From an uncultured Staphylococcaceae bacterium (GTDB lineage: Bacteria > Bacillota_I > Bacilli_A > RFN20 > CAG-826), in NCBI GenBank assembly GCA_964507285.1, contig CAZDPH010000001.1:1-61334 (forward strand): a stretch of 61,334 bases of DNA, written 5' to 3'. Made by a program: the position numbers and the translations under genes. The notes beneath the pieces were generated by a model that searched no databases, was not told where the DNA came from, and worked only from the letters and a program-made list of their open reading frames with translations. Shown piece after piece: positions 3,995-29,153 of the stretch (position 1 is its first letter; each line of letters begins with the position of its first letter).

Positions 3995-5044
3995 TTATTT
4001 TTGTAGTATATAATATGTGTTTTTGCCCTGTCCGTATTTTTTAACTTTTCCGTCTTTCATCAAAGTTGCAATTGCTTTTTCAACCGCACTGACGGAAATC
4101 GTCGGACACAATTCTGCAATTTCGGATTTTGTAAGCTTGCCTATTTTGGTTTTAAACGCATTTTCGACAAGTTCCGTTGCCGTTTGCTTTTTACCGACGA
4201 GGCTTAGCCTTTCTTCAAAATCGTTATATGCGGATAATATTGTCATAAGCAAATATTTTATAAAAGGTGTCGGATTGTCTTTTCCCTCATGCCATCCGAT
4301 TTGACTATCATATAAAGCATCATAATATAAATCTTTATATTTGGCGATTTTGCTTTCAAGCGATATATACTTTCCGACAAAATAACCCGAACGGTAAAGG
4401 AGCAAAGTTGTCAACAATCTACTCATTCTGCCGTTGCCGTCACGAAAAGGATGAATGCAAAGAAAATCATGTATAAAGATCGGAATCAAAAGGAGTGCAT
4501 CCACAGTTCCGTCTTCAATTGCTTCATTGAACGTTTTACAAAGATTTTCTATCGCTATTGGTGTTTCTAACGGATCAAGTGGTATAAACAAAATGTTTTT
4601 GTTTCCGTTTGCATCTATAGCGGAAATCTCATTTTGTGAGTTCTTGAAACACCCTCCGAAGTTCATCTCGGTATTGTGAGAATAAAGTATCTTGTGCAAT
4701 TGTAAGATATAGTTCGCAGTGATCGGAATATACTCGAAGCTTTCATGAATTGTGGCAAGAGCGTCACGATAGCCTGCAATCTCTTTTTCGTTTCTATTTC
4801 TCGGAGTCGTTTTTTGCATAATCAATTGCTTTAATCGTGTTTCGGTTGTTTCAATACCTTCAATTGCATTACTTGCTTCCGTGCTTTGAACTTTTGCAAT
4901 TTCAACGAGTCTGTCAAGTTCTAACTGCTTTTGAGAAAGATACAATTCTTGTTTGCCTTTCATCTCGTGAATTTTGGCAAGGTACTCAACAATTGTGTTA
5001 TCCCATTTGCAGTTTGCAAGTTTTTTATAATTGAATTCTCTCAT
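3995..5044 (-). CDS. fic: Fic-family protein (AMPylase class) with N-terminal inhibitory helix and C-terminal winged-HTH
   Basis: Fic active-site motif HPFRDGNGRMSRLL (residues 198-211). Intramolecular inhibitory motif [ST]xxxE[GN] = SNAIEG (residues 58-63). The C-terminal LTKSEIAELCPTISVSAVEKAIATLMKDGKVKKYGQGKNTYY looks like a wHTH. Confidence 0.85.
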   Translation of the reverse strand: MREFNYKKLANCKWDNTIVEYLAKIHEMKGKQELYLSQKQLELDRLVEIAKVQSTEASNAIEGIETTETRLKQLIMQKTTPRNRNEKEIAGYRDALATIHESFEYIPITANYILQLHKILYSHNTEMNFGGCFKNSQNEISAIDANGNKNILFIPLDPLETPIAIENLCKTFNEAIEDGTVDALLLIPIFIHDFLCIHPFRDGNGRMSRLLTTLLLYRSGYFVGKYISLESKIAKYKDLYYDALYDSQIGWHEGKDNPTPFIKYLLMTILSAYNDFEERLSLVGKKQTATELVENAFKTKIGKLTKSEIAELCPTISVSAVEKAIATLMKDGKVKKYGQGKNTYYILQK

Positions 5045-9345: not shown

Positions 9346-10476
9346 TTAATAATTATAATTTGGATCTTTTTCTCCCCAAATTTTAATTCCTTTTGAACTT
9401 GCTAAATCATTAGCGTAATTAAAATAATAAGTATATGGAATATTTTTATACTTCATCTCATCAAGAGTAGCATTCATATATTTTCCATAACCTTCTTTTA
9501 CTAATTCATAATTTAATAAATTATAATCAGAATAAGATGGATTTTCTTCATTTGTATACCATACAAAACCTAATATTCTTTTGTATGTATCTCTTATACT
9601 TCCTCCAAGTGCACTTTGAATTAAAATATGTTTTGCATTTTTTAATTTTTCATAAGTATATTTTTTAGCAGCTTCTCCCCAAGGTTGTTCAGTAATAGAA
9701 CTTCCTTCACTAGTATGATCAATTTCAGGAGTATTTACTAAATAGTATCTAACTTTTTCTGAAGATTCAATATTGCTAAATCCTTTAAAAGTAAAATATG
9801 TAGTATCCCCATCAACATATTTACTAACGCTTGTTTCATATACTCCACCTTTAGGTGTTTCGTTTTCTAGAAAGCTAGCATTCATATATCTTTCATCTAA
9901 TTTAGGTCCTTCTAGAAATTCTTCATAATCAATAGGAGTACTAACCCCAAATCTACCATCAAATTCATTTCCTACTACTTTATACCATTCAAATGAATTA
10001 AATGTTTCGCTACCTTTTAATGAATTTTCATTTTTAATTAAAGTACCATTTTCAATATATGGATTAGAATAACCTAAAGTGCCAACACTATCTAAAACAT
10101 AATCTTTATATTTTATTTCAATGTAATTAAATCCATAAATTACATCTTTTTCTAAATATGAATAATTTAAACATCCTAAATCACTTTTATAACTAGGATT
10201 TGCAAAGATAAAAGAAGTATTAGAAATTGAAGAAAAATAATCTTTTAAATTTAATGATAATAAAATATCTTTTCCTTTATAAAAATTTAAATAAATATCA
10301 TCTTTTATTTCATTTTTATTAGTAACTTCTATATAGGATTCAAAAACATTACTTGATACTCCTATTTCACTGATAAAAGGAGCATTATCTTTGATATTGC
10401 TCAAATTATCTTGGCTACAACTTGTTGTAGCACTAGTTAATAATAAAGGTAAAATTAAGAGATATTTCTTTTTCAT
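9346..10476 (-). CDS. Lipoprotein-like nuclease: N-terminal LTD-like region plus C-terminal staphylococcal (thermo)nuclease domain
   Basis: Signal peptide MKKKYLLILPLLLTSATTSC. SNase motifs are VDGDTTYFTF, VRYYLVNTPEIDH, QPWGEAAKKYTYEKL, RILGFVWY and YELVKEGYG. Confidence 0.8.
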   Translation of the reverse strand: MKKKYLLILPLLLTSATTSCSQDNLSNIKDNAPFISEIGVSSNVFESYIEVTNKNEIKDDIYLNFYKGKDILLSLNLKDYFSSISNTSFIFANPSYKSDLGCLNYSYLEKDVIYGFNYIEIKYKDYVLDSVGTLGYSNPYIENGTLIKNENSLKGSETFNSFEWYKVVGNEFDGRFGVSTPIDYEEFLEGPKLDERYMNASFLENETPKGGVYETSVSKYVDGDTTYFTFKGFSNIESSEKVRYYLVNTPEIDHTSEGSSITEQPWGEAAKKYTYEKLKNAKHILIQSALGGSIRDTYKRILGFVWYTNEENPSYSDYNLLNYELVKEGYGKYMNATLDEMKYKNIPYTYYFNYANDLASSKGIKIWGEKDPNYNY

Positions 10477-10478
10477 AA

Positions 10479-11894
10479 TTAATCAACTAAAACTAAATCA
10501 CTTCCGCTACGAATAACAATTTGTGTAACGTATTTGCCACTTGTTTGTTTATGTAAAGCGACAACTCCTGCGATTTTAAATGTATGTCCAACAAAAGATT
10601 CATGTGAAATCCATTGATTTGATGGATTTGATGCATCTGGTTTATAAATAAATGGGATAAATGCACTAACATTAATTTTTTCACCATCTTCAGTTTCTAA
10701 ATATAATGTTATAGAATCGCTACTAGAAGTATAGCCTCCAGTAACTCTAACAATTTCTTCAAATTTAACAGGAGAATTAACACATTCATAATCTTCATTA
10801 GTGAATGCTTTAATGCTTCTTTCAAATTCATACATTTTAAATTCATCAGTATTATTTTCAGGAGAAATTAATACTTGAGCGTCATTTTCTCCAGGAAGAT
10901 AAGCTTTCCAACTACATCCAGAAATTTGAAATCCAAAATTTTCACTATTAGAAACTGTTCCACAAACTTGTAAATATGTATTTACTTTATAGAATTTTGA
11001 AGAAATACTGCTCATACCTGTATAGATATTAATTCCAGCATATTCTCCATATTCATATCTTCCACCATTTTCTTTAGAATAATAATTTTGTAAATAAATA
11101 GTGTTATTTGCAAAGCCTACAACTGTGCCAACAACTTTAACATTCATGTTATTAAATTTATTTTCGTAAGTTTCACCATTTTTACTAGCAGCAATTTCTT
11201 TTTCTAATTCAATTTTCATATCAAGTAAAGAAACTACTTCATAATCACCATAATTGAATAATGGATCATCTTCTCCAGAGAATAAATTTAATTTATATTC
11301 TTGAGCTTGTCTCCAAGCAGCTCTAAATGTATCTTCAAGACGAGGCATTTCGTTAGCGTTTTTAACTTCACTATAGCCATTTTGGACTAATAATAAATTT
11401 AATAAAATTAAATCTTTATAATCAGCATTTTTTGTAGTTTCATTAATCCAAATAAGTGCTAAATATCTAGTACCAGTTGAATCATGACTTGGAACACAAT
11501 ATTCATCTCCAGGAACAGAAATAACAATAGTACCATTTTCATTAGCGTTAGTTAATTTTTCTTTTGTAAAGTTACTTGCAGCTTTTCCATAAGGTTGAAT
11601 TTTACCTGTTGATTCTGGAGTATCAATTCCATAAAATCTACATTTAATTAATTCATCATTTCCTTCTTCTTTAAAGTGAGCAGTATCTCCATCAATAGCA
11701 GTTTGTAAAGTAACTTGAGCAATACCATCACTTAAAAAATCATGTCCTTTATAATCTAAATTTAATCTAGCTTCATCTTTAATTGTGTAATCAATAAATT
11801 GAGTTGAAGTATCAGTATTAGAACCACAACTTGATATTGTGAATACAGAAATAGAAGCTAAGAATGTAAAAAATAATCTTTTAACAATATTCAT
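10479..11894 (-). CDS. Lipoprotein nuclease: N-terminal staphylococcal nuclease domain plus C-terminal OB-fold-like domains
   Basis: Lipobox ISSC. SNase motifs are IDGDTAHFK, CRFYGIDTPESTGKIQPYGKAASNFTKEKL, RYLALIWI and LLLVQNGYSEV. The C-terminal VKVVGTVVGFANNTIYLQ and VRVTGGYTSSSDSITLYLE look like OB-fold strands. Confidence 0.8.
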   Translation of the reverse strand: MNIVKRLFFTFLASISVFTISSCGSNTDTSTQFIDYTIKDEARLNLDYKGHDFLSDGIAQVTLQTAIDGDTAHFKEEGNDELIKCRFYGIDTPESTGKIQPYGKAASNFTKEKLTNANENGTIVISVPGDEYCVPSHDSTGTRYLALIWINETTKNADYKDLILLNLLLVQNGYSEVKNANEMPRLEDTFRAAWRQAQEYKLNLFSGEDDPLFNYGDYEVVSLLDMKIELEKEIAASKNGETYENKFNNMNVKVVGTVVGFANNTIYLQNYYSKENGGRYEYGEYAGINIYTGMSSISSKFYKVNTYLQVCGTVSNSENFGFQISGCSWKAYLPGENDAQVLISPENNTDEFKMYEFERSIKAFTNEDYECVNSPVKFEEIVRVTGGYTSSSDSITLYLETEDGEKINVSAFIPFIYKPDASNPSNQWISHESFVGHTFKIAGVVALHKQTSGKYVTQIVIRSGSDLVLVD

Positions 11895-11895
11895 A

Positions 11896-13341
11896 TTACA
11901 TCTCCAATAAAGTCATTTGATAAGCATAATCAAATGCTTCATCAATACTCTTTTTATTTAAAAATACATTTGTAAGAATACTTCCTACATTATCTCTTGC
12001 AGCACTACTTCCTTTAAAAGTAGGAGTAGTAATATATTTACCATTAATGTCATTAACAACAACATTGCTAGTTTCTGCTAAGAAAGTATCATTTTCACTT
12101 AAATATTCTTTATAGAAATCAACTTGATAAGAAGATTCTCTTACTGGAACATATCCCTCACTTCCTAAATAACAAATTTCAGGATTATTTGTAGTATTTG
12201 TAATATATTTTAAGAATTTCCATCCATATTCTTTTCTAAATTCATTAACTTCATCGCTTACACCAACTGATCTAAGTAAAGTTAAAGTAGGTCCTTGAGT
12301 AACATAAAGTGGATTATTATTACTATAAGGAACTTTACATACTCCAACACTAAATGATGCACTTCCTGGATCATTATATCCTGCACCTCCAGAAGAACCA
12401 ATTGTAAATAAACATTTTCCTACTGTGAAAGAGTTAGAACCATATTCATTATTATTGCTTCCTTTTGTTTTTAAAAGTCCATCATCATAATTTGATTTTA
12501 ATTCTTTTACTATTGCTTTAGCTTCATCATTATTAAAATCAATAGATCCTTTCCCATCTTTAACAGAAATAAAATCAACATTATTTTGATAAAGTTTAGA
12601 AATAATCAAATTAGAATCACTATCATAAATTAAAGGTGTTTCTAAAGCAGTTCCATATGTATTTTTACCACTATCCATGTCTTCTTTAACAAATCTTAAT
12701 AAATCAATAAATTTATCCCAAGTTAAATTTTTCATAAATTCACTTGGATCAGAAATAGTAGAATCATAATTAGGAATTAAAACATTTTCTACAATGTCCT
12801 TGTTATACATTAAAACTTCACTACTTTTCATAAAAGGAAGAGAATAAGTACCTTCTTTTAAATATGATGTAGATTCATTATAGAATGCTTTAACAAAGTC
12901 GCTACTATCTTTATCGTCACCTAAATATGAATTTTTCCCATATCCATAGGTAGAATCATTCATTAATGTTTCTAAATTATAAACATACTCCTCGTCAAAA
13001 TCTTCATGAGAGAGATAATTTGCAACGTGATCTGGATATGCAACAGCAATGGTAGGAGAATTGCCAACAGCAAACCCACGTTCAATTTGAGTCATAATTT
13101 CATCATAACTACCAATATAAGAAAGTTCGATATTAACATCAACACCTTCTTCATCTTTGATAATTTTTTTAAACTCATTTATCTTACTTTTAATTTCATC
13201 TTGAAGATTTTGACCAAAAGTATGCCAAAAATAGATAGTATTGCTTGATTCTTCATTCTTTTGATTACAGGAGAAAAGGCTCACTAAAAATAATGGCATT
13301 GATAAAAATAATTTCATTTTGTTCCGGTTTTTAGTAAGCAT
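11896..13341 (-). CDS. ABC transporter solute-binding lipoprotein (family 1 type)
   Basis: ATG 13341 follows AAGGAG. Signal plus Cys (LVSLFSC). About 480 aa with a family-1 SBP-like layout. It is a paralogue of the next gene (shared ...GS.GGAGYN / GSTGG... and ...KGSSA.R / KGSSTCR blocks). Confidence 0.7.
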   Translation of the reverse strand: MLTKNRNKMKLFLSMPLFLVSLFSCNQKNEESSNTIYFWHTFGQNLQDEIKSKINEFKKIIKDEEGVDVNIELSYIGSYDEIMTQIERGFAVGNSPTIAVAYPDHVANYLSHEDFDEEYVYNLETLMNDSTYGYGKNSYLGDDKDSSDFVKAFYNESTSYLKEGTYSLPFMKSSEVLMYNKDIVENVLIPNYDSTISDPSEFMKNLTWDKFIDLLRFVKEDMDSGKNTYGTALETPLIYDSDSNLIISKLYQNNVDFISVKDGKGSIDFNNDEAKAIVKELKSNYDDGLLKTKGSNNNEYGSNSFTVGKCLFTIGSSGGAGYNDPGSASFSVGVCKVPYSNNNPLYVTQGPTLTLLRSVGVSDEVNEFRKEYGWKFLKYITNTTNNPEICYLGSEGYVPVRESSYQVDFYKEYLSENDTFLAETSNVVVNDINGKYITTPTFKGSSAARDNVGSILTNVFLNKKSIDEAFDYAYQMTLLEM

Positions 13342-13378
13342 AATCTTTTCTCCTTAAATTTTTATAATTTCGCTTTTA

Positions 13379-14875
13379 TTATAAAGCTAATTTAGCTTGA
13401 GCTTCAGCATCAGCAAACCATTGATCAATTTCATCAATATTGTTAGATGTAGTTAATGCTTTTGTCATTAATCCACTAACTTGGTTTCTACATGTTGAAG
13501 AACCTTTGAATGCTGGTGAAACATATAATGTACCAACATCATTAATTTTAGCTTTTGAGTAAGCCATAACTCTATCTAATGTCTTTTCATCGCATGATTC
13601 ATAATCACTTGCTGCTTTATAAATAGCACTGTTTAAGACACTATATCTGATTGGTGAATAACCTGTACTGATTGACCAATCTAATGAATTTTCTTCATTT
13701 GAAATGAATTTATAGAATAACCATGAAGCTAATTGTCTATTCTTATCACCATTATGATCTAACATACAGATTGAAGGACCTTGGTTGATTGAATAAGCAT
13801 GTTCTGCATTAGCTTGAGGAATTCTAGCAACACCAACGTTCATTGGATTTGATTCTGAGAATTGGTATTTAACACCACCTGTTGAACCAACTGAGAATAA
13901 TGTATTTTGTAATGTGAAGTAGTTATTTGTATAGTTACCACCTGCACTACCTTTTGAAATAATATATCCTTTTTCAGCTGCTTCATGGAATGTTCTTAAA
14001 ACATTTTTCATACCATCATTATTGAAATCAATACTAGCAGTACCAGTTGCTTTATCAACTGATGTATATCCATATCCATATTGTTTTGCTAAAGTAATGA
14101 ATAAGTTATCATCACTATCATAAGCAAAGATTGAATGATATGCTTGATCAGTTTTAACATATTTTTCTGATTCTGAAACTGAATCATCATGGGCTTGAAT
14201 AGCTGGACATAATTTATTAAATAATTCATCCCATGTTAAATTATCTAAATATTCAGCACTTAAAGGTTTACCACCATTGATTGTGCTATCATATTTTGAT
14301 AAATCCATACCAATTAAAACATCAGCATTATAGAACATTTGTTCTGTTGATTTACACCATGGGGCACTATATGTTCCTTCAACTAAATATTCTTTACCTT
14401 CTTCTAAATAATCTGTAATGAGATCTTCGTATTCTTCTTTTGTCCATCCGACTGTTGCGTCATTCATGAATTGTTCTAATTCAACTGCTTTATTGTAGTT
14501 GATATATTCTGCAACGTGGTCTGCATAACATTGAACAAGATCTGGATAAGCATTAGCTGTAAAACCTTTAACAGTAGCTTCTTTTAAATCATTATAAGAA
14601 CCACTAATGATTGTGCTAGTAACTGTAATGTTTGGTTGAGCTTTTTTAAATGCTTCGATATAACTATTTAAATTTGGTTGATTGTTTGTACCAATAATTG
14701 ACCATAATGTAATTTCAGTTTTTTGTTTTAAAACTCCATTTTCATCAACTAAGTCACTCCATTCACCTTCAGTAACAATTCTATCGTCACTATTTCCACC
14801 ACCATTACAAGCAGTAGCGCCACAAGCAACTGAGAGTAATGCTAATGCACATTTTAATGTTTTAAACTTTTTCAT
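13379..14875 (-). CDS. ABC transporter solute-binding lipoprotein (family 1 type)
   Basis: Signal plus Cys (LLSVACGATAC). It is a paralogue of 11896..13341 and sits directly downstream of the two permease genes. Confidence 0.7.
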   Translation of the reverse strand: MKKFKTLKCALALLSVACGATACNGGGNSDDRIVTEGEWSDLVDENGVLKQKTEITLWSIIGTNNQPNLNSYIEAFKKAQPNITVTSTIISGSYNDLKEATVKGFTANAYPDLVQCYADHVAEYINYNKAVELEQFMNDATVGWTKEEYEDLITDYLEEGKEYLVEGTYSAPWCKSTEQMFYNADVLIGMDLSKYDSTINGGKPLSAEYLDNLTWDELFNKLCPAIQAHDDSVSESEKYVKTDQAYHSIFAYDSDDNLFITLAKQYGYGYTSVDKATGTASIDFNNDGMKNVLRTFHEAAEKGYIISKGSAGGNYTNNYFTLQNTLFSVGSTGGVKYQFSESNPMNVGVARIPQANAEHAYSINQGPSICMLDHNGDKNRQLASWLFYKFISNEENSLDWSISTGYSPIRYSVLNSAIYKAASDYESCDEKTLDRVMAYSKAKINDVGTLYVSPAFKGSSTCRNQVSGLMTKALTTSNNIDEIDQWFADAEAQAKLAL

Positions 14876-14936
14876 AAATCCTCCATGTTTAAAATGTTTT
14901 ATTTATTTTTTACACTTTTAATAAAAGTGAGAAAAC

Positions 14937-15917
14937 CTAACCTTTAATACCTGCTCTTCCAACACCTTTCATAATGTATTTACGGAAGAAAACAAATAAT
15001 AAGAATAATGGCACAGTAACTAAAACAGTAGCAGCCATTTGATAACCATATTCAGTACGTCCGCTTTCAGCATCAACGAAACTTGATCCTCTTAAACCAT
15101 TTGAAATTAATCTATATGATTCGTTATTAGCAGTAACTAAATTTGGCCAAACATATGAGTTCCATGTTCCCATGAATTTTAAAATAGTAATAGAAATTAA
15201 TGTAGGAGCAGCAAGTGGAACCATTACTTTCCATAAATAATTCCAATCACTCTTTCCATCAACTTTACTAGCTAAATATAATTCATTAGGAATTTGCTTG
15301 AAATTTTGTCTTAATAAGTAAATGTGGAAAACACTTACCCAGAAAGGAACGATCATTGCAGCATATGCATCCATTAATGAAGCATTTTCTCCAACCCATC
15401 CAAATGATGCAACTGTAATATAGTTAGAAATAACCATCATTTCACCAGGAATCATCATAGTCATTAAAAATACCATGAATAATGCTTCTCTTCCTTTAAA
15501 TTCAAGACGAGAGAATGCAAATGCAGCAAATATTGTTGTTAGAAGTGTACCTATTGTAGAGAATATTGCAACAACAATTGTATTCCACATGTATGTTGAA
15601 AAATCAAATGCACTAAAAACATAAACATAATTACTCCACATAACAATAGTAGGGAAGAATGTTTGATTTGATTGAATAATTTCATCATTAATTTTTAATG
15701 ATGTAATTAACATCCAATAGAATGGGAAAACAACAATTAATGCTAAGAAAATAATTAAAGCATATGTAATAAGTGTTGAAATAAATCTACCTATTTTTTC
15801 AGTTTTTTGAAGGGTTTTAACAGTTTGGTTTCCTTCTTTAATACATAAAACAATTTTATTATTATCAATATCAACTTTTTTAAAGTCTATATATTCTTTT
15901 GAAATACTATTTTCCAT
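14937..15917 (-). CDS. ABC transporter permease (MalG/UgpE-type binding-protein-dependent inner membrane component)
   Basis: Six hydrophobic segments. The EAA-loop-like ELYLASKVDGKSDWNYLWKVMVPLAAP is typical of carbohydrate-type importer permeases. Confidence 0.8.
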   Translation of the reverse strand: MENSISKEYIDFKKVDIDNNKIVLCIKEGNQTVKTLQKTEKIGRFISTLITYALIIFLALIVVFPFYWMLITSLKINDEIIQSNQTFFPTIVMWSNYVYVFSAFDFSTYMWNTIVVAIFSTIGTLLTTIFAAFAFSRLEFKGREALFMVFLMTMMIPGEMMVISNYITVASFGWVGENASLMDAYAAMIVPFWVSVFHIYLLRQNFKQIPNELYLASKVDGKSDWNYLWKVMVPLAAPTLISITILKFMGTWNSYVWPNLVTANNESYRLISNGLRGSSFVDAESGRTEYGYQMAATVLVTVPLFLLFVFFRKYIMKGVGRAGIKG

Positions 15918-15933
15918 ATAAACCTCCTTGATA

Positions 15934-16986
15934 TTAATAATAAACTCTCTTCTTTGATACTCCCATTTGAATAAATGTAAATATCAAAATAACAATAAAG
16001 AGTAATACAGCAGCAGCAGCTGCAAATGAAGTATGAGTATTTAAGTTATCATAAATATAATAAACTATTGTATATAACTCATAAGTACCTGTTGTTGTAC
16101 CAGGTCCATTGAATAAACCAACAATTGATGAATATTCTTTAAATGCACTAATAAATGAAGTGACCATGATATAAAGAATTTGTGGACCAAGAAGAGGAAT
16201 AGTAACACGAGTTAATACTTTCCATCTTGGAGCAGCATCAATTTTAGCAGCTTGATAATATTGCTTATCAATACCTTGTAAGCCTGATAAGAAAACAAGA
16301 ATTTTAAATGGTAATGATGACCAGATAATGTAAATACAAAGTGGTAACATTGCATCCCATCTACTAGCACCATAAATCCATTGTTTACCAGTGATTCCAA
16401 AAATAAAGTTTATAACACCATTTGAATCAAATAAAACAGAGAAAACCATACCAACCGCAATAGTATTTGTAACATATGGAAGGAAGAATATAGTTTGTAA
16501 TACTTTTTGGAACCATTTAATTGAATTTAAAGCAACGGATATCAATAAAGCAATTAAAATAGAAGGAATAACAGTAGCAAATACTAAGAAGAATGTATTA
16601 GGAATAGCGTATTCAAGAATACGAGATTCATAAGCTCCTCCATTAATTTCAGTTAAACCTAATATTGCACCATAGTTATCTAATGTAAAACCATTATATG
16701 TACCTTTAATATAATCATAATCTTTCATGAATGAAATAAAGATTGTATTAATTAAAGGGTAAATAAGGAATACTGCCATTAAGATAAGAACAGGAGCTAA
16801 ATATAACCATGCTCTCCAGTTATTTGTACTTTCAGCATTTTTAACACCAGTAACTTTATATTCTTTTTTTGATTTTTTAGAAGAAAGAAAGCGCACTAAT
16901 ACTTTTTTATCTTCATTATATCCATCATTAATTTCGCCTAAACGATTATCAATGAATGTTTCGTGAGTGACACTAGCACTTTCCAT
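15934..16986 (-). CDS. ABC transporter permease (MalF/UgpA-type)
   Basis: Multiple TM segments. EAA-loop-like QYYQAAKIDAAPRWKVLTRVTIPLLGP. Confidence 0.8.
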   Translation of the reverse strand: MESASVTHETFIDNRLGEINDGYNEDKKVLVRFLSSKKSKKEYKVTGVKNAESTNNWRAWLYLAPVLILMAVFLIYPLINTIFISFMKDYDYIKGTYNGFTLDNYGAILGLTEINGGAYESRILEYAIPNTFFLVFATVIPSILIALLISVALNSIKWFQKVLQTIFFLPYVTNTIAVGMVFSVLFDSNGVINFIFGITGKQWIYGASRWDAMLPLCIYIIWSSLPFKILVFLSGLQGIDKQYYQAAKIDAAPRWKVLTRVTIPLLGPQILYIMVTSFISAFKEYSSIVGLFNGPGTTTGTYELYTIVYYIYDNLNTHTSFAAAAAVLLFIVILIFTFIQMGVSKKRVYY

Positions 16987-18890
16987 TATTTAACCTCAAT
17001 ACGTTTTTCATCTTCTCCAAAGATAAAGAACTTGCCTGGTTTTAATCCTAATTTGATATCCCCAATATGTTCTTTTTGTTCATCTTGAATGATAACTTTG
17101 AAATTTTCCTTAGTGCAATTATCATTTAAACAAATTAGAGATAAGTCTCTTCCTAAAACTTGAATTGAATCGCATTTTGCTTTTAAAGAACATTCAGCAT
17201 CATTTTCTAATACTTCAAATCCTTCTGGTCTAATAGCAACAAATACTTTTTGATTTTCTAATTGATTTGATGCTTTATATACTAAATCGTTTCCAATATA
17301 AATTCCATTATCTTTAATTTCACCATTAAAAACATTAATTGGAGGAGTTCCTAAGAATTGAGCAACGAATAAGTTTGTAGGATTATTATAAACTTCTTGA
17401 GGGGAATCCATTTGTTGGAATTCACCAAGTTTCATAACAACAATTTGATCACTAATTGACATAGCTTCTTCTTGGTCATGAGTAACGAAAACAGTAGTAA
17501 TTCCTGTATCGCGTTGAATTCTTCTAATTTCTTCTCTAGTTTTTAATCTTAAACGAGCATCTAAGTTACTTAAAGGTTCGTCAAGTAATAAAACTTTTGG
17601 ACGTTTAACTAAAGCTCTTGCAATAGCAACTCTTTGTTGTTGACCACCACTCATTTGAGATGGTTTTCTATCTAAATATTCATCAACTTGAACAAGTTTT
17701 GCAGTTTCTAAAACAATTTTTCTTCTTTCTTCTTTAGTTAATAATCTATAAGCTAAAGCAGGAATCTTTTTAATTTCAACTTGATCAGTATTTAATAATG
17801 ATTTTAAACAATTTTCAACTTCAGAGATTTTAGAGTCTGTAATCTTTTTAACTTTAAAGAATAATTTAATTCCATCTTCAGAATTAAAGACTTTTAAGTC
17901 TTTATGTTTTACACTAATTTTCTTTAACTCATTCTTAATTAATTTATCAATATAATCAACTTTAAATTCTGATACTTTTAATTGTTCATTTTTTAAAGGA
18001 TATTTACTATTTAAACTTATTTTTAATGAATTAATATCACTTGCTTTTGAATAGTCAAATTGGGAGAACATTACATAGTTTCCGTTAACTTCACTAATAA
18101 CAAATGAAGTTAATTTAACACCATTACCTTTAAACATTGATTGAATTTCATGAGAATAATCATTTAATTCATTTTCATTAAGTTTACCATTAAATTCATA
18201 TGATAAACTTCCTTTATAAATTTGTTTAGATTCTTCAATTTCAAATTTACTTCTAAAAGAAACATCAAATAAAGCTTCTTGAGTTTGAATAACTTCAGGA
18301 GCACCAACTTCAAATGCAACAACTTTAGTAATATTTTCTAAAAATAATTTAGCATTTCCTTCACTTACATTTTTAAGTTCACAATCAATAGATAAAAGTT
18401 TATCAGAAACACTTTCTTTTAATAAAATATTTTTTAAACCTAATTTACTTCCTAATGAATGTAAAGATTTAACAATTCCACTTGGAATATCGCTTTCATC
18501 TAATTGATATTCTAATTTAAATTTATAATCATAGAAATTTTCTAATGGTACTTCAACTTTTAAATTAGTTAATGGAAATTCGATATTTTTATATACTGTC
18601 ATATGAGGATATAAAGCGTAGTTTTGGAAAACTAAGCCAATGCCTCTTTTTTCAGCAGCTAAATTAGTAACTTCTTCATCTCCAAACCAAATTTCTCCGC
18701 TTGTTGGATTTTCAAGTCCTGAAAGCATATATAAAGTAGTAGATTTACCACATCCAGAAGGACCAAGTAAACCAATTAATTTTCCATCAGGAATTGTAAT
18801 ATCAAGATTGTTAACAGCAACAGTATCTTTTCTATGTTTTTTTGGATCTCCAGGGAAGACTTTTGTTAAATTTTTAATTCTAATTTCCAT
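16986..18890 (-). CDS. ABC importer ATP-binding protein (MalK/UgpC-like) with an insertion of about 270 aa in the helical subdomain
   Basis: Walker A GPSGCGKST. Q-loop region LVFQNYALYPHMTVYKNIEFPL. About 270 extra residues follow (112-383). Then LDRKPSQMSGGQQQRVAIARALV (signature), LLLDEPLSNLD (Walker B), the H-loop TVFVTHD and a C-terminal TOBE-like tail. The stop overlaps the start of the next gene. Confidence 0.85.
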   Translation of the reverse strand: MEIRIKNLTKVFPGDPKKHRKDTVAVNNLDITIPDGKLIGLLGPSGCGKSTTLYMLSGLENPTSGEIWFGDEEVTNLAAEKRGIGLVFQNYALYPHMTVYKNIEFPLTNLKVEVPLENFYDYKFKLEYQLDESDIPSGIVKSLHSLGSKLGLKNILLKESVSDKLLSIDCELKNVSEGNAKLFLENITKVVAFEVGAPEVIQTQEALFDVSFRSKFEIEESKQIYKGSLSYEFNGKLNENELNDYSHEIQSMFKGNGVKLTSFVISEVNGNYVMFSQFDYSKASDINSLKISLNSKYPLKNEQLKVSEFKVDYIDKLIKNELKKISVKHKDLKVFNSEDGIKLFFKVKKITDSKISEVENCLKSLLNTDQVEIKKIPALAYRLLTKEERRKIVLETAKLVQVDEYLDRKPSQMSGGQQQRVAIARALVKRPKVLLLDEPLSNLDARLRLKTREEIRRIQRDTGITTVFVTHDQEEAMSISDQIVVMKLGEFQQMDSPQEVYNNPTNLFVAQFLGTPPINVFNGEIKDNGIYIGNDLVYKASNQLENQKVFVAIRPEGFEVLENDAECSLKAKCDSIQVLGRDLSLICLNDNCTKENFKVIIQDEQKEHIGDIKLGLKPGKFFIFGEDEKRIEVK

Positions 18891-18911
18891 AAATTATCTC
18901 CATTTTATTTA

Positions 18912-20453
18912 TTAATTTGTACCATCATCGCTAGTTTCAGCATTTAAATGTAATCTTTCACGAGCTTTCTTTTCTTTATAGCTCTTGTATGAGTTATAGT
19001 AGTATTTAATAAAATAACCACCTAGGCAAATACAAATAACACTAGCAACAAATATAATTGAATCAAGAGGATTAAATACAGTTAAAGAATTATTAAACCC
19101 TGTTGAACGAGCAAAGATATATAATATATCAACAAGTAAAGCTTCTAAGAAAATAACTCCTAAAGTATTAACTTTAATAAACTGTTTCTTATTTAAAACT
19201 TTAAATTCGCTCTTTTTATCTTTGTTTTTTAAATGTAAATAATAAATATATGCAACTACAACATAAATAACTAAAAGTGCAATAGTGAAAATAACAAATA
19301 TTTTATTATAATTAGTAACTTTTGAAGTACTTACTTTATTTACAACAATGTTACCACTATTATCTAAAACATCTTGCATTTTGAAATCGAAAATAGCAAA
19401 TCTAGTAGTAACTGTACTACGAGCAACAATTTTACTTGTTGTAGTATTAAATAATTCTACTGATACTGATGCAGCATGAATTCTAAATGATTTAATATCT
19501 TTAGCTTTAAATTGTTCAAGAATAAAAACAGATTCATTTTCATCATTAAAATATTTTAAATCACCAGTAGTAGTTTTAATTACAACTTCTTCGTTATTAC
19601 TATTAACTACTTTTAAATAACTATCTCCACCTAATGAAATTCTTGTTCTAATTTTAACTGTTCCATTTTCGATATTATCTTTATTTTTAGTATATAAACT
19701 TAAAGCAACATCACCTAAAGCACCATTTGAATAAAGCTCTTTTCCATAATTTGTAGTTTTTACAGTGATTGCTAAGTAATCTTCATATTCAGCAAAAGAT
19801 TTAAATTCTAAATCTAAGAAATCACTTAAATCTCTTGATACAAATGATTTTGCTTCACTAGTTTCAAAGCAAACTGGTTTATCTAAAATAGGAGCTCTGC
19901 TAATGAGTAACCCACTATCATCAAATTTTAAATCTGCTTTATAACAATCAATTAATTTAACACTTGAAGTATCAATTTTATAAGTTCCTGAGAGTTCAAT
20001 ATCACAATAACCAATAAAACTTGTAGATCCTAAATAACTTCCAATACCATGATTAGATTTTTGAACAATAGAAGTTGAATAAGTACCTAAAAAAGCATTT
20101 TTTTCATTATAAACATCATATTCTAATTTAGCAGTATAATTATTTCCATCCTCATAGTAACCAATATAGTAATTAGCGTCACTATTTCCTAAAGCAACTC
20201 TAAATTGAATTGAATGAGATACTGTTGTTCTTGTATAACTTGTTAAAGTAACAGTTAAATCATCGCTTAATGTAGATTCACTATTAACTTCATAATTATT
20301 AACGCTCAAAGAAGAAGCATTAGTATTTGAAGAAGAACCTACACTATTAGTTGGCTTAGAAAAACTGCATAGAGTTGTAAATGCAATCAAACTAGAAATA
20401 GCCTTAAAAATTAACCCACTTTTCATACTATAAATATTATAAATTGTTTTCAA
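18912..20453 (-). CDS. Membrane protein of unknown function (large extracytoplasmic N-domain, three C-terminal TM helices)
   Basis: First gene of the tightly spaced minus-strand cluster. The track start at 20453 is a TTG; an alternative ATG lies at 20426. I recognise no motifs. Confidence 0.55.
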   Translation of the reverse strand: MKTIYNIYSMKSGLIFKAISSLIAFTTLCSFSKPTNSVGSSSNTNASSLSVNNYEVNSESTLSDDLTVTLTSYTRTTVSHSIQFRVALGNSDANYYIGYYEDGNNYTAKLEYDVYNEKNAFLGTYSTSIVQKSNHGIGSYLGSTSFIGYCDIELSGTYKIDTSSVKLIDCYKADLKFDDSGLLISRAPILDKPVCFETSEAKSFVSRDLSDFLDLEFKSFAEYEDYLAITVKTTNYGKELYSNGALGDVALSLYTKNKDNIENGTVKIRTRISLGGDSYLKVVNSNNEEVVIKTTTGDLKYFNDENESVFILEQFKAKDIKSFRIHAASVSVELFNTTTSKIVARSTVTTRFAIFDFKMQDVLDNSGNIVVNKVSTSKVTNYNKIFVIFTIALLVIYVVVAYIYYLHLKNKDKKSEFKVLNKKQFIKVNTLGVIFLEALLVDILYIFARSTGFNNSLTVFNPLDSIIFVASVICICLGGYFIKYYYNSYKSYKEKKARERLHLNAETSDDGTN

Positions 20454-20661: not shown

Positions 20662-23408
<2,747 letters not shown>

Positions 23409-23562: not shown

Positions 23563-24642
23563 ATGAGCGAAAATAAAACTTTAGATATATTTCCAACAGG
23601 TAAATTTAAAAGAATATTAACATTTCTAGGTGATTTATTATTATTTTATATTTTAACAGTCTCTATGTTTCAACTTGTAGTTTTTAATATTGCAAGTGCA
23701 TGTACTAATTATTCTTCTAGATTAGAAAATAATCTTCAAACAATTAATTCAAGAATGAATATTCTTTATAATAATGAATTATTATTTTATGATGAATCAA
23801 ATAAATATAGTTTTGATTCTTCATTAGATACTACATTTGATTATTTTTTAAGAAGTTATGTAATTAAAGACACTAAAGATCCTATTATGCATTATTTTAA
23901 TGATTTAGATAACAATAAAAATTTAAATGAAGTATTTAATAAATATAATGAACTTGGAAATGAATATTTTAATATTAATAATAATGAAATAACTTTAAAA
24001 GATGAATATTTAGATTATTTTAAACCATATTTTGATACTACTGATTCATTAAGTTCTCTAGGAAGAAAATATCTTTCTACATTTAGAAGTAAAACATTTG
24101 TATCTTTATATAATTATATGTTAGAAGATATTTTAAAAGATGATTTATCTTTTAATAATTTAAGTTATATTAATTTATCTAATAAAATTAATGAAAATAG
24201 TAATTATAATTTATTATTTAATTCAATAAATATTACTATTTCTTTTATTATTTCTTTTTTAATTTATTATGTATTAATTCCTTTATTATTTAAAGATAGA
24301 TCTACTTTAGTAGAACATGTTTTAAAAGAAAAAAGAATTGATCTTAATTCATTTGAATTTTTAAAAAGAAGAAATTACATAGTAATTATTGCAAATAATT
24401 TATTAATGTCTTTATCTACTATATTCTTTATAGGAATTATTTATATGGGTTTTTATTCATTATTTAATTATATGCATTTTTTAATTATTTCAATATTATC
24501 TATAGTATTTATATTAATAAATTTATTTATTTTATTATTTAATCCATTTAATAAAACATTAAAAGAATTAAGTACTAAAACAATTTTAATCTCTCAAGAA
24601 TCATTAGAAGAAATTTATAGGAGTAAGGGATATGGAGAATAA
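23563..24642 (+). CDS. Polytopic membrane protein, tentatively RDD-family-like
   Basis: N-terminal KRILTFLGDLLLFYILTV TM segment, a hydrophilic Asn/Tyr-rich central domain, and C-terminal TM helices. Confidence 0.5.
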   Translation: MSENKTLDIFPTGKFKRILTFLGDLLLFYILTVSMFQLVVFNIASACTNYSSRLENNLQTINSRMNILYNNELLFYDESNKYSFDSSLDTTFDYFLRSYVIKDTKDPIMHYFNDLDNNKNLNEVFNKYNELGNEYFNINNNEITLKDEYLDYFKPYFDTTDSLSSLGRKYLSTFRSKTFVSLYNYMLEDILKDDLSFNNLSYINLSNKINENSNYNLLFNSINITISFIISFLIYYVLIPLLFKDRSTLVEHVLKEKRIDLNSFEFLKRRNYIVIIANNLLMSLSTIFFIGIIYMGFYSLFNYMHFLIISILSIVFILINLFILLFNPFNKTLKELSTKTILISQESLEEIYRSKGYGE

Positions 24643-25621
24643 TGAAATTATTGAAATTGCGTATACTAGACCTAAATTAACAAGAAGATTATTTTCTAGA
24701 ATTGTAGATGGTTTTTTATTATTTTTACTATCTTTAATTTGCTTTGTATCTATTAATTCTATTTATTCTACAATTCCTTCATACCAAAATACTAAAACTA
24801 ATTTAGATGAAATTAGACTTAATTCTTCTTTATATGTTAAAAAAACTAATGATACTATCGTTAATGTTTCTACATTTATTTATCAAGATTCAAAAATGTC
24901 TTCATCTCAAAAAGAAGAATATTTATTAACACATTTATCTAATTTCTTTGATTATTTAAAAAATTATAATGAATCTAGTTATTTAAAAGCTAAAAACTCT
25001 TATGATGAATTTAGATTAAAAGATTCTTTAAAATATAATGATTATCCTTTATTTATTAAAGATAATAATTCAAATATTATTAAAAATACATCCTATTCAA
25101 TTCCTATCTCTACTTATATTGATTCTTGTTACACAGTATTTATTGATACATATTGTAATGGATATCTTTCAAGTGAAATAAAAGAATATTATGAAGGAAT
25201 TAAATATATTCAAGCATTAACATTCTTTGTTAATATTCCTATTTCAGTTTTTATTTCTTCATTAATTGTATTTTTTATTCCTCCATTTATTTTTAAAAAA
25301 GGAAGAAAAACAATTGGAATGTTAATATATCATATAGGTTTTGTTAATTCATCTTTATTTAATTTAAGTATTAAACAATATTTAATTAAGTTTCTTACTT
25401 TTTATTTTTTAGAATTTTTACTTTCTATATTTACATTTGGAATTCCGTTATTTATTTCATTAACAATGATGTTAGTAACTAAGAAAAAACAAAACTTTAA
25501 TGAATATATTTTAAATATTCAAGAAGTATCTACTAGTGATTCTACTATTTATAATGATAAAACAGAAATTATTGTAGAAAGTAATGATTCAAGTAATAAT
25601 GTTGATTTCCATTTACGTTAA
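24632..25621 (+). CDS. Polytopic membrane protein, tentatively RDD-family-like (same architecture as the upstream gene)
   Basis: Overlaps the upstream gene by 11 nt. RRLFSRIVDGFLLFLLSL is an RDD-like N-terminal segment. The layout matches 23563..24642. Confidence 0.5.
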   Translation: MENNEIIEIAYTRPKLTRRLFSRIVDGFLLFLLSLICFVSINSIYSTIPSYQNTKTNLDEIRLNSSLYVKKTNDTIVNVSTFIYQDSKMSSSQKEEYLLTHLSNFFDYLKNYNESSYLKAKNSYDEFRLKDSLKYNDYPLFIKDNNSNIIKNTSYSIPISTYIDSCYTVFIDTYCNGYLSSEIKEYYEGIKYIQALTFFVNIPISVFISSLIVFFIPPFIFKKGRKTIGMLIYHIGFVNSSLFNLSIKQYLIKFLTFYFLEFLLSIFTFGIPLFISLTMMLVTKKKQNFNEYILNIQEVSTSDSTIYNDKTEIIVESNDSSNNVDFHLR

Positions 25622-25632
25622 TTAATATAAAA

Positions 25633-25653
25633 ATCGTCAATTTAATTGACGAT
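25633..25653. terminator. Bidirectional terminator between convergent genes
   Basis: aaaATCGTCAAtttaaTTGACGATtttatttt: 8-bp stem flanked by an A-run and a T-run. Confidence 0.6.
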
Positions 25654-25662
25654 TTTATTTTA

Positions 25663-26973
25663 TTAAATATTACTTAACCATTTATTAATTTCACTATAAT
25701 CATCTACCCAGATAGTAATTAAATCATAAGTAAAGAAATAATTAGTAACATCTTTTAAAGTTGAATCTTTATATCCTTTTTCTTTTTTCATAAATATAAA
25801 ATTAAATTTTAAATAATTAGATGCTACTTCTAGTAATCTTTTCATATTAGGATCTGTTAAAGAAATACCTACAAATACACAACACTTAAAAGTAAAATCA
25901 TGTAATTGTTTAGATATATTCCATGAATATGGATTATTATATAAATAATAATAATCAGATTCATTAAATATTAAAGAATTAACAAATCTAGATTCATTAT
26001 ATTTATTATATGGTAATAATCCATGAACATGATAAATATTAATAGATGAATTATCTTTACTTGTAAATGCAAATTCATCATAGATAGTATTATAAATAAT
26101 TTCTTTTTTTCTTAATAAATATTCTAAATTAGTATCATAATTATAAGTAATTACTTCAGTGTCTTTATGTGATTCTAAATATTCTACTAAAGCATATAAA
26201 CTAGTTTCAGTAGTAGAAAAACTCTTTTTATTTTCATCATTAAAATTAACTAAATATATTTCATTATTTAATTCTTTATAAGTATCAAATCCACTTGTTT
26301 TTAATACTTTTCCATTAACAAATAATTCACTACCTACATAATGTTTTATTTCATTAATTCTTTCTACATCATTATTATAAAAAGTAGAATTTAAAGCGTC
26401 TACTAAACGTTTCCAATCTTTAACTCCATAATCTACATTAATTCCAGCACCTATAACTAAATCAACATTTAATCTATAAGTATATAATTTTAATAAAAAC
26501 ATTATAAATGATTCATTATTATTCTTTTTATTTCTATTTAAATAATATAATAAATCATCACCTAAAAATGATTCTGATTCTTTAGATTTTAAAGTGTATT
26601 CTATTTTTTTACCTTCTATAAATCCTAATGCTAAGAAATTAGAATCATCTAAATAAATATTTAAACTAGCTTCTGGATTATAATAATCATCATTTTTTAA
26701 TGATTTAACTTTAATAAAGTTAACATTTCCCATTATATCTAAACTTTCTAAGTTAACTTTAGATAATGATGAATAAATATGTACGATGTATTTATGTACA
26801 TGATCTTTTTTTGAATTTACAATCACTTTAAAATCACATTTAGGATCAAAATGAAATCCAAATGATCTAAAATTAATATCTTTATAATCAATTCCATTAA
26901 TGTAATAAAGATATAAAAGTACTAATAAGCATTTTTTATTAAATAAATATTTTTCTCTATCTTTTATTTCCAT
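25663..26973 (-). CDS. SIR2_2-type (SIR2-like, DHS-like NAD-binding fold) protein with an N-terminal domain of about 165 aa and unknown type
   Basis: The C-terminal part carries, in order: DLVIGAGINVDYGVKDW (residues 171-187), VITYNYDTNLE (274-284), NIYHVHG (312-318), LIFNESDY (334-341) and CVFVGISLTDPNMKRLL (365-381). This is the SIR2_2 motif order. There is no SD before the ATG. The gene is monocistronic, with its own terminator and a 221-bp upstream gap. Confidence 0.7.
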   Translation of the reverse strand: MEIKDREKYLFNKKCLLVLLYLYYINGIDYKDINFRSFGFHFDPKCDFKVIVNSKKDHVHKYIVHIYSSLSKVNLESLDIMGNVNFIKVKSLKNDDYYNPEASLNIYLDDSNFLALGFIEGKKIEYTLKSKESESFLGDDLLYYLNRNKKNNNESFIMFLLKLYTYRLNVDLVIGAGINVDYGVKDWKRLVDALNSTFYNNDVERINEIKHYVGSELFVNGKVLKTSGFDTYKELNNEIYLVNFNDENKKSFSTTETSLYALVEYLESHKDTEVITYNYDTNLEYLLRKKEIIYNTIYDEFAFTSKDNSSINIYHVHGLLPYNKYNESRFVNSLIFNESDYYYLYNNPYSWNISKQLHDFTFKCCVFVGISLTDPNMKRLLEVASNYLKFNFIFMKKEKGYKDSTLKDVTNYFFTYDLITIWVDDYSEINKWLSNI

Positions 26974-27194
26974 TCTATTATTTTAAAAAATTATTAATTT
27001 AATTTAAAGAATTTTAATAATTAATATTTAAAATTTATACATCATATTTTACTCGGATTAAATTTAGTCAATTTTTTCCGAGTAAACTTATTCACTAAAA
27101 TAGTAAATTGAAATTATATCTAAGACAGGTTTTAATATTACTAAAAAAGAAAATAAAAATTAAATTTTTATAACATTAGATGACATGTATAAAA

Positions 27195-28146: not shown

Positions 28147-28617
28147 TTAATTAGATTTATTCTTAATTAAAGAAGTATAAAAATTGATTTCATCATTATT
28201 AAATACATTCTTTATTTTTTCAATATATCTTTTAAAACCTTTTAAATTAAAAATAATTTCTTCTGAATCATTATCTAATTTATTAAATATAGGGCATAAA
28301 TAAATATTATTATCCAGAGAATATTCATTTAATATTTCTAATATTTTTTCTTTTATTAAATTAAGCTTAATTAAAGGATTTTTAATAGATGTATTTTCAT
28401 CAATTATCCATAATTCATCATTTAATTGATATTTATCTAATGAATAACTATTCGTAATTATCTCAAAAATAAAAATTCCTTTTTTAGTTACAATAATTGC
28501 ATCACATTCTAAATCATCAAATTTAATTTTAGTAATTAAATTTTCCTTTTCATAAAAAGAATTATAAATTTTATTTATTATTTTTTCTTTTTTATCTTTT
28601 GTAAATATTAATCCCAT
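28147..28617 (-). CDS. NERD (nuclease-related domain) protein
   Basis: ECDAIIVTKKGIFIFEIITNSYS...ELWIIDENTSIKNPLIKLNLIKEKILEIL matches the NERD pattern D.i.i...GifviE.K, then W, then NP..Q. The start shares one base with the nudF stop (TAATG). Confidence 0.6.
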   Translation of the reverse strand: MGLIFTKDKKEKIINKIYNSFYEKENLITKIKFDDLECDAIIVTKKGIFIFEIITNSYSLDKYQLNDELWIIDENTSIKNPLIKLNLIKEKILEILNEYSLDNNIYLCPIFNKLDNDSEEIIFNLKGFKRYIEKIKNVFNNDEINFYTSLIKNKSN

Positions 28618-29153
28618 TATAAGTTATCCTTATTTAATAGGTAAAGGGCAAATATTTGTACAGTTTTAGCGTCACTTATTTCACCTTTTTTAATTTTTTC
28701 AATTATTTCTTCTTCAGTTAAATAAAAAACTTCTACAAATTCATTTTCATCTAAGTGAGTATGAGTTTTAATTAAATCAGTAGCATAATATAAATTAATA
28801 ACTTCATTAGTATATGCTACACTTGGGAAGCATTTTCCTAAAAATTTAATATTATTAGCTTTAAAACCAGTTTCTTCTTCGAGTTCTCTTAAGGCAGTAT
28901 TTTTAGGATCTTCATTCTCATCACATTTACCTGCTGGAACTTCAATTAAGATATTATGATATGGATAGCGATATTGTTTTTCAAAAATAAATTTATTATC
29001 TATTTTTGCAAGTACTGCACTAGCAGGTATTTTATCAATATATTCTCTATATGCTTTATTCCCATTAGGACAAATAATTTCATCTTTATGAACTTCTAAA
29101 AGATGACCTTTAAATACAATTTCACCTTTAATTTTCTTTTCTTCTAAATCCAT
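28617..29153 (-). CDS. nudF: NUDIX hydrolase, ADP-ribose pyrophosphatase type
   Basis: Perfect Nudix box GKCDENEDPKNTALRELEEETGF (GX5EX7REUXEEXGU). The flanking F.G.LLEV..D......G..A.RE and DAKT motifs are typical of NudF/YqkG. Confidence 0.8.
   Translation of the reverse strand: MDLEEKKIKGEIVFKGHLLEVHKDEIICPNGNKAYREYIDKIPASAVLAKIDNKFIFEKQYRYPYHNILIEVPAGKCDENEDPKNTALRELEEETGFKANNIKFLGKCFPSVAYTNEVINLYYATDLIKTHTHLDENEFVEVFYLTEEEIIEKIKKGEISDAKTVQIFALYLLNKDNL

Follow-up and report, generated by a model that had tools for sequence, protein, structure and literature searches.

The DNA analysed here, referred to as the window, is a stretch of 61,334 nucleotides from an uncultured Staphylococcaceae bacterium (contig CAZDPH010000001.1). 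On its reverse strand it contains a gene (25663–26973; ATG start, stop codon at 25663–25665) that encodes a two-domain protein of 436 residues, hereafter the SIR2 protein; an identical protein is present in public assemblies (P0001). Codons 1–130 (26584–26973) form an orphan N-terminal domain, the N-domain, in which a helix packs on a seven-stranded sheet. Codons 131–140 (26554–26583) constitute a linker that varies in length in the alignment and is modelled with low confidence (predicted local distance difference test, pLDDT, below 50 at residues 131–137). Codons 141–436 (25666–26553) form a NADase-type SIR2_2 ('sirim') domain, for which Pfam, PADLOC and structural alignments over approximately 300 columns to ThsA, KomC and DSR2 are in agreement. 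The protein carries a domain of the defence-type NADase class with its catalytic residues intact, and its gene is a vertically inherited chromosomal gene of one gut lineage, under strong purifying selection.

The SIR2_2 family (PF13289) is matched over residues 273–398 with 51.8 bits against a gathering cut-off of 24.5 (E = 1.2e-13), in agreement with an earlier reading of this DNA made without database searches (the sequence-only reading), and it is the sole Pfam match at E ≤ 1 in the whole protein. PADLOC assigns the protein to ThsA1 (E = 2.7e-9; profile positions 108–274 of 478, which cover the SIR2 part only) and to its SIR2 profile (8.4e-7), and a search of the protein against NCBIfam returned no match. 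The five motifs that had been quoted in the sequence-only reading, together with N278, D280 and H317, were all found at the residues given there: VIGAGINVDYGVKDW at 173–187, ITYNYDTNLE at 275–284, IYHVHG at 313–318, LIFNESDY at 334–341 and VFVGISLTDPNMKRLL at 366–381. The first contains the Gly-rich NAD-binding loop G175-A176-G177 (26443–26451, reverse strand), which aligns to the GAGVS of KomC. The catalytic Asn and Asp lie in N278-Y279-D280 of the segment TYNYDTNLE (26134–26142, reverse strand), comparable to the TTNYDTLIE motif of EcThsA, and H317 (26023–26025, reverse strand) is the catalytic His of HVHG. In an alignment of 45 homologues, G175, G177, N278, D280 and H317 never vary, and A176 is conserved in at least 90% of the sequences. 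No CxxC zinc motif was found in the protein sequence; because this Zn-ribbon signature is missing, the protein is placed in the immune-type 'sirim' class. Every SIR2 with a known antiphage role falls in this class, and 'sirim' members are 12-fold enriched beside defence systems (bioRxiv 10.1101/2024.09.18.613514). From its sequence, the SIR2 protein is predicted to cleave NAD+.

A full-length AlphaFold2 (AF2) model was built from the 45 homologues, with a pLDDT of 78 and a predicted template modelling score of 0.82. A Foldseek search of the PDB with this model gave 117 matches at E ≤ 0.001, and the best 50 of the 117 are all ThsA, KomC/HAM-SIR2 or DSR2 structures. The leading matches, ThsA (8btp, 2.2e-11), KomC (9xvc, 5.6e-11) and DSR2 (8k9a, 1.3e-10), each span approximately 300 columns that correspond to the SIR2 domain only. 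Searches against PDB sequences were weak: the whole-family profile found nothing at E ≤ 0.01, and the single sequence retrieved only KomC (E = 0.036) and ThsA (E = 0.14). The SIR2 assignment therefore rests on Pfam and Foldseek. No transmembrane segment was found in the protein. Residues 3–25 were considered as a membrane helix, and this was rejected, as the hydrophobic stretch covers only some 11 residues and the maximal KD19 value is 1.33.

The AF2 model of the N-domain (pLDDT 84.4) consists of one long helix, residues 3–25, and seven strands, with the sheet ending near residue 128. The sequence-only reading had described the N-terminal region as beta-rich, free of membrane segments and without recognisable relatives; all of this holds, with the difference that the domain boundary lies at about 130–140 rather than at 165. 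The family alignment contains 21 invariant columns in this domain, many of them polar, including Y9, K13, K14, F38, G39, F40, D43, S54, H60, Y62, D79, G82, N85, P100, N105, Y107, G117, E120 and G121. The structure prediction and fold search that had been proposed for the domain revealed no significant structural neighbour: the best PDB match has E = 0.045, and the best BFVD match has E = 5e-3 with a TM-score of 0.17. Pfam and PHROGs gave no match. A HMMER profile of 31 N-domains, run against 1.84 billion representative proteins, retrieved one full-length cluster at 50% identity, which is the SIR2 family itself, and fragments. The N-domain is thus an orphan restricted to the SIR2 family, without detectable relatives by sequence or fold. 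Four further weak profile matches (E from 1e-6 to 2e-4) belong to repetitive proteins of more than 1000 residues and were taken as compositional. Nuclease-like folds (YaeQ, AvaII, tRNA endonuclease, Schlafen and poxin) appeared at TM-scores of at most 0.45 with probabilities mostly below 0.5, and the lead was dropped since no PD-(D/E)XK motif fits the invariant residues.

The distribution of the family was examined in several collections. Among 5.8 billion proteins, a word-indexed search retrieved 221 SIR2-family clusters, and the 120 homologue clusters listed of these 221 are all full length (415–448 residues) and 55–100% identical. The family constitutes one tight cluster with at least 53% identity. 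When each GTDB species was represented by a single genome, a scan placed relatives in at least 116 species, all of them uncultured gut 'Bacilli/Mollicutes' bins, with Candidatus (Ca.) Enterosoma, Ca. Onthovivens and Clostridium sp. CAG:288 among them (GTDB RFN20/CAG-288-like). Ca. Enterosoma corresponds to the GTDB genus UBA7642 of order RFN20, family CAG-288 (Gilroy et al. 2021, PMC8035907). Fifteen species-representative bins with a SIR2 locus bear titles such as Bacteroides, Phocaeicola, Parabacteroides, Slackia, Roseburia and Alistipes, and are apparently mislabelled or contaminated (L010, L011, L031, L036, L038, L039, L042, L047, L051, L054, L056, L061, L069, L078 and L084).

Several measurements point to vertical descent under strong constraint. 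None of the 79 complete copies in the fetched genome loci is disrupted, and within the species of the window 7 of 7 contigs keep the gene, a test of low power. Pairwise identities of the SIR2 protein and of EF-Tu encoded on the same fragment are correlated (r = 0.82; none of 2000 Mantel permutations reach this value), and neighbour-joining trees of the two proteins display congruent groupings. Nei-Gojobori dN/dS values for the closest pairs are 0.04–0.10 and equal in the N-domain and the SIR2 domain; the values of the N-domain, 0.03–0.10 and at their widest 0.03–0.27, remain about equal to those of the SIR2 domain, and the N-domain exhibits no accelerated evolution. This slow evolution favours a conserved small molecule or host protein as trigger over a phage protein, and the invariant polar residues and equal dN/dS of the N-domain fit a conserved ligand or partner. 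Orthologues of the SIR2 protein have a median identity of 56.6% to the window protein, similar to the neighbouring ABC (ATP-binding cassette) permeases (53–55%) and far above the neighbouring RDD proteins (29–30%) and binding proteins (25%).

The SIR2 gene lies in an extremely AT-rich region, with a GC content of 17–28% between 18 and 34 kb of the window. It is convergent with gene B (24632–25621, forward strand), which encodes a 329-residue RDD-family membrane protein (PF06271, 36.7 bits; cut-off 24.1) and is preceded by gene A (23563–24642, forward strand), encoding a 359-residue paralogue of B with four transmembrane segments, recognised by profile matches and cross-matches with the B profile and without a Pfam match. 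SIR2 and B share a bidirectional intrinsic-terminator hairpin at 25630–25656, with a 12-bp stem and T-runs on both strands; the terminator search gave two hits, where 0.0 are expected by chance. The sequence-only reading had placed this terminator at 25633–25653 and had noted the 221-bp gap upstream of the gene, and both features were recovered. Within the gap, a stable hairpin at 27047–27087 (reverse strand; 10-bp stem plus an inner stem, fold z-score −2.75) probably terminates the operon upstream. Between this hairpin and the start codon, at 27017–26980, lie AT-rich, promoter-like hexamers, which constitute weak evidence for a promoter. An Rfam search of the gap, hairpin included, detected no riboswitch or other RNA. 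Because the two hairpins flank it, the SIR2 gene of the window is monocistronic, as had been proposed; this is not a property of the family, in which the gene is found in operons with A and B or in the order HAD, SIR2, psuG and psuK.

A Shine-Dalgarno sequence is indeed absent from the SIR2 gene, and the accompanying statement that nearly all neighbours possess one was too strong: in a crude scan, a clear one precedes 19 of the 41 large open reading frames of the window. It is present in 24 of 76 orthologues. Its absence was therefore rejected as a special trait of the gene. Two to three genes upstream, on the strand of SIR2, the window encodes a 156-residue NERD-like protein and a NudE/ADP-ribose-pyrophosphatase-like NUDIX hydrolase (28147–29153), an arrangement that is retained only in the closest relatives (L009 and L171). 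A link of the NUDIX neighbour to ADP-ribose disposal is speculative.

The third component of the neighbourhood is a CUT1 ABC cluster (9346–20453, reverse strand) that encodes a protein with four transmembrane segments, a split ABC ATPase, two CUT1 permeases, two binding proteins and two SNase nucleases. Its ATPase (634 residues) is interrupted by roughly 250 inserted residues; the lineage-specific four-segment protein (513 residues) has no Pfam match; and the binding proteins belong to SBP_bac_8/Lipoprotein_X. The cluster is kept across the lineage with or without SIR2. It resembles the nuclease-linked ABC cluster of mycoplasmas, and looks like a nucleic-acid scavenging cluster of that type. 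In the species of the window, two paralogous predicted surface proteins with collagen-like repeats and DUF6273 (20662–22005 and 22025–23383, reverse strand) separate A and B from the ABC operon; neither L009 nor L011, the closest relatives, has these genes at that position. A second sample of the species (L003, compared with L001) encodes one of the collagen-like proteins with 424 residues instead of 450 and without a Collagen (PF01391) match.

Synteny was counted over 72 informative genome loci. SIR2 lies beside the A/B RDD-type genes and the CUT1 ABC/nuclease cluster in 56 of them, usually as the first gene and with a spacing of 0–3 bp. The predominant layout, with SIR2, A and B in this order on one strand, occurs in 46 loci. 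In the called genes of public assemblies, SIR2 and A are 1–3 bp apart. SIR2 is convergent with A and B, as in the window, in 2 loci; an ABC ATPase lies between SIR2 and A/B in 2; SIR2 runs directly into the ABC operon in 2 and is divergent from it in 3; and 1 arrangement is partial. The remaining 16 loci have other neighbours. The description of the gene as wedged between unrelated membrane-protein genes is thus not borne out, as A and B are conserved neighbours in most relatives. The convergent, monocistronic layout of the window is a derived local inversion of A and B, present only in the sublineage of the window (the window, L009 and L011). The neighbour upstream of SIR2 varies and the downstream one is kept; in 14 loci the upstream gene encodes EF-Tu, at the end of an S12-S7-EF-G-EF-Tu array. 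The A/B pairs themselves belong to a multicopy, fast-evolving paralogue family with approximately 29% identity where SIR2 keeps 57%. Often 2–3 pairs lie within 10 kb, and two A subtypes occur in one genome (L005, L012, L013, L022, L023 and L074–L083).

A second tight context is found in a Ca. Onthovivens-type sublineage, where SIR2 follows a HAD phosphatase gene and precedes psuG and psuK, genes of pseudouridine catabolism, with gaps of 56, 10 and 4 bp. It was seen in L038, L039, L042, L044, L057, L059 and L170 (SIR2 at 10001–11314 in L170), and the cluster adjoins ribosomal-protein and RNA-polymerase (rpoA) operons. Further contexts comprise GH77 and MiaB-like genes, and NfeD and Band_7 genes. 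In L014, a TnpB-like gene (12317–13525, with a Cas12f1-like TNB domain) lies three genes 3′ of SIR2; it is the sole mobile-element-like gene in any of the neighbourhoods.

Loci were also sampled independently of SIR2, by searching metagenomes via the ABC permease. In about 25 loci A, B and the ABC operon follow each other with the upstream side covered and no SIR2 gene, compared with 7 loci that carry it. Clean junctions of EF-Tu, A and B without SIR2 occur in L097, L101, L129 and L130, and tblastn searches of the SIR2-negative loci found no SIR2 remnants. The presence of such loci without the gene or its remnants indicates that SIR2 is dispensable and is not needed by the A/B-ABC cluster. The EF-Tu of the SIR2-positive CAG:288 genome L065 is 83–84% identical to that of three negatives and at most 81% identical to that of other positives, and L065 carries the deepest SIR2 branch in the neighbour-joining tree. 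The simplest reading is that SIR2 was acquired once, at an early date, and was then passed on vertically and occasionally lost.

The reading that we prefer, tentatively and at somewhat less than even probability, is that of a lineage-fixed, trigger-gated NAD+-depletion switch. The C-terminal SIR2_2 domain would be a cytoplasmic, catalytic NAD+ glycohydrolase of the ThsA/KomC/DSR2 type. We infer that it is gated by the N-domain (residues 1–130), which would restrain the enzyme until it binds an intracellular, conserved ligand or partner. This trigger would probably be a host protein or a small molecule, and less likely a variable protein of a phage. The gene would have been acquired or invented once, in the ancestor of this small-genome, very AT-rich clade of gut Bacilli, by insertion between tuf and the RDD-RDD-ABC importer cluster, with later vertical descent and occasional loss. 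Its likeliest role would be a growth-arrest or abortive-infection-like switch acting through NAD+ depletion. Two considerations speak for an immune or stress role: the known antiphage SIR2s all belong to the 'sirim' class, and the gene is dispensable in sister lineages, as would be expected of an accessory or immune gene. The sequence-only reading had proposed a sensor plus SIR2 abortive-infection protein of an undescribed type. The SIR2 domain with intact catalytic residues and the new N-domain agree with that proposal; the vertical inheritance and the lack of a defence context do not.

Several observations weigh against the depletion switch. Searches of 50,697 phage records, 72,556 plasmids and IMG/VR contigs recovered no full-length relative, only matches to the SIR2 domain, at 22–46% identity. 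No defence gene or mobile element was seen directly beside SIR2 in the approximately 85 neighbourhoods inspected, nor was a producer of a signalling ligand (TIR, cyclase or HAM1) seen near it. PADLOC, a run of which had been suggested for the contig, gave only generic helix-turn-helix and NUDIX profiles for the neighbours in the window. Where the gene is part of an operon, it lies at 0–14 bp from transport or nucleoside-catabolic genes. Patchy horizontal distribution and clustering with defence genes or mobile elements, the typical behaviour of antiphage genes, are not displayed by SIR2, for which only deep presence and absence was found; conservation by vertical descent at the level of an order, with a slowly evolving 'sensor', is atypical of such genes. 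A fixed housekeeping context across relatives had been named in the sequence-only reading as evidence against defence, and the family largely exhibits one (at least 116 species, congruence with EF-Tu, ribosomal and metabolic neighbours), although in related lineages the corresponding site is without the gene. Since defence genes and mobile elements are missing from the neighbourhoods and the gene behaves like a core gene, the argument for a defence role comes from homology alone. A physiological role tied to nucleotide scavenging would fit the operon partners and the genomic behaviour of the family as a whole equally well.

Such a physiological role is the strongest of the alternatives, possible but less probable than the preferred reading. 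An NAD+-cleaving, or related N-glycosidic, activity would be wired into nucleotide and nucleoside scavenging: it might convert NAD or NAD-like nucleotides to nicotinamide and ADP-ribose, and then ribose-5-phosphate, or adjust the NAD+ level or a signal in response to a metabolite that the N-domain senses. The enzyme would be expressed together with the RDD-RDD/CUT1 ABC/SNase cluster or with psuG and psuK. The two independent tight operon contexts argue for it, as both concern the salvage of nucleic acids or nucleosides (SIR2, A, B, ABC, binding proteins and SNase in one; HAD, SIR2, psuG and psuK in the other). The association with A/B and the ABC operon is kept, in the 56 of 72 loci, through co-directional, convergent and divergent layouts; the downstream neighbour persists while the upstream one varies; and SIR2 is conserved to the same degree as the ABC permeases. 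Vertical inheritance, strong purifying selection and the lack of a defence context are consistent with this role, as is the NUDIX gene, which lies three genes upstream in the window. On the other hand, the A, B and ABC cluster functions without SIR2 in many related lineages, the neighbours in the 16 other loci (GH77, MiaB-like, NfeD/Band_7) are unrelated, and synteny may persist without functional coupling in small genomes that rearrange slowly. An unregulated cytosolic NADase would also be toxic, and no metabolic role is known to us for any SIR2_2 protein of bacteria, which likewise counts against this explanation. In the most novel form of this idea, to which we give a similar probability, the protein would be a bacterial 'sirim' domesticated to a core, non-defence function, and the first of its kind: an NAD+-cleaving enzyme that has a new sensor fold, is gated by a metabolite and is built into nucleotide-scavenging operons. 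In a three-part variant, the orphan domain would relay signals to the NADase from the surface RDD proteins, which evolve fast.

A compact, self-contained and mobile single-gene abortive-infection system, in which the N-domain recognises a phage component directly, is improbable. The combination of a SIR2_2 effector with an N-terminal domain without known relatives would suit it, as would the monocistronic gene with its own terminator in the window and the analogous SIR2 protein of a Klebsiella plasmid, encoded among anti-restriction and WYL genes. The family is nevertheless one tight, vertical cluster of one lineage, absent from mobile-element collections and from defence islands; its N-domain lacks accelerated evolution; and the monocistronic layout on which the idea draws is the derived inversion described above. 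We give equally little credence to an NAD+-dependent enzyme that modifies proteins or nucleic acids (an ADP-ribosyltransferase or deacylase) and whose N-domain recruits a conserved cellular target, for instance a translation factor encoded upstream or, on their cytoplasmic side, the RDD proteins: the intact catalytic Asn and His, the highly conserved N-domain, as expected for a conserved host partner, the frequent position of the gene after tuf and before A/B, and the vertebrate FAM118 sirtuins of the SIR2_2 class, which are reported to process NAD without being simple depleters (PMC12700824), speak for it, but the protein has no Zn module and no classical-sirtuin match, its nearest folds are pure NADases, and it persists where neither tuf nor A/B adjoins.

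The current view of bacterial SIR2_2 NADases is that they serve as effectors in mobile antiphage systems. The family described here pairs such an effector with a domain of unknown fold, and it is core-like in more than 100 species of abundant uncultured gut bacteria. The SIR2_2 effector itself was already known; what is new here is the orphan N-domain and the core-like evolution of an immune-type effector. If the role is immune, the protein would represent a rare abortive-infection effector that is fixed and slowly evolving throughout a lineage and that offers a new domain for trigger sensing to be decoded. A physiological role would mean that immune-type SIR2 has been recruited to metabolism or signalling in bacteria too, as proposed for vertebrate FAM118. 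Either way, the N-domain represents a compact new module for binding a ligand or partner, with many invariant polar residues, and is amenable to biochemical deorphanisation.

A comparison with known systems shows that the SIR2 protein matches no described defence system, as the sequence-only reading had recognised from its architecture and from the lack of ThsB, HerA or pAgo partners; KomAB partners are likewise missing. A description of the family was not found in the searchable literature. Classical sirtuins such as CobB are characterised by PF02146 and a four-Cys zinc module, neither of which is present in the window protein. No HerA, Piwi or HAM1 Pfam match indicates a partner of the SIR2-HerA (Nezha), SPARSA or Kongming type, the operon partners being RDD, ABC or psuG/psuK genes. 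Vertebrate FAM118A/B and other eukaryotic 'sirims' are of the SIR2_2 class, vertically inherited and fixed in their lineages rather than mobile (PMC12700824; bioRxiv 10.1101/2024.09.18.613514). They are eukaryotic proteins with other accessory regions, and their comparison with the window family covers the SIR2 domain.

The closest resemblance is to ThsA of type I Thoeris, with which the window protein has the SIR2_2 fold and its motifs in common (GAG loop, TxNYD, HG and FxGxSxTDPN); ThsA provides both the best Foldseek match and, as ThsA1, the best PADLOC profile. By analogy, the two proteins may share a logic in which a ligand sensor and a NADase are combined as two domains of one chain. In ThsA, an N-terminal SIR2 domain is followed by a C-terminal SLOG domain (or Macro or transmembrane regions), whereas in the window protein the order is reversed and there is no SLOG match. 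No ThsB/TIR gene was found among the called neighbours within ±10 kb in the species of the window and four other sampled relatives, and the distribution of Thoeris is patchy, in contrast to the vertically fixed window family. KomC of Kongming (HAM-SIR2) is the minimal SIR2 that is nearest in size and shape, with TM-scores normalised to the target of 0.70–0.72. It is a stand-alone SIR2 of approximately 265 residues that is activated by a nucleotide signal via a partner and requires KomA and KomB (HAM1), whereas the window protein has a fused orphan domain and no KomA or KomB genes present. With DSR1 and DSR2 the window protein shares the combination of a sensor and a SIR2 NADase in a single polypeptide, and DSR2 is matched in fold at 1e-10. 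The DSR proteins are much larger (about 1000–1300 residues); in them SIR2 is N-terminal, and a phage tail-tube protein is bound by a large helical sensor. The window protein, of 436 residues, has a small beta-rich domain and a C-terminal SIR2.

The same domain order is found in an uncharacterised protein of 504 residues encoded on a Klebsiella plasmid (WP_032434307.1), in which an N-terminal domain of about 175 residues precedes SIR2_2; the SIR2 domains are 28% identical (E = 2e-23). Its gene lies at 4467–5981 of L089 (plasmid NZ_CP129856.1), among antirestriction, DUF932 and WYL genes, and has PADLOC matches to ThsA1 and LmuA. The Klebsiella protein is plasmid-borne, in contrast to the chromosomal, syntenic window family, and its N-terminal domain is unrelated to the N-domain described here. 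Because the domain order is shared and the N-terminal domains are unrelated, a variable N-terminal domain followed by SIR2 is a recurring design.

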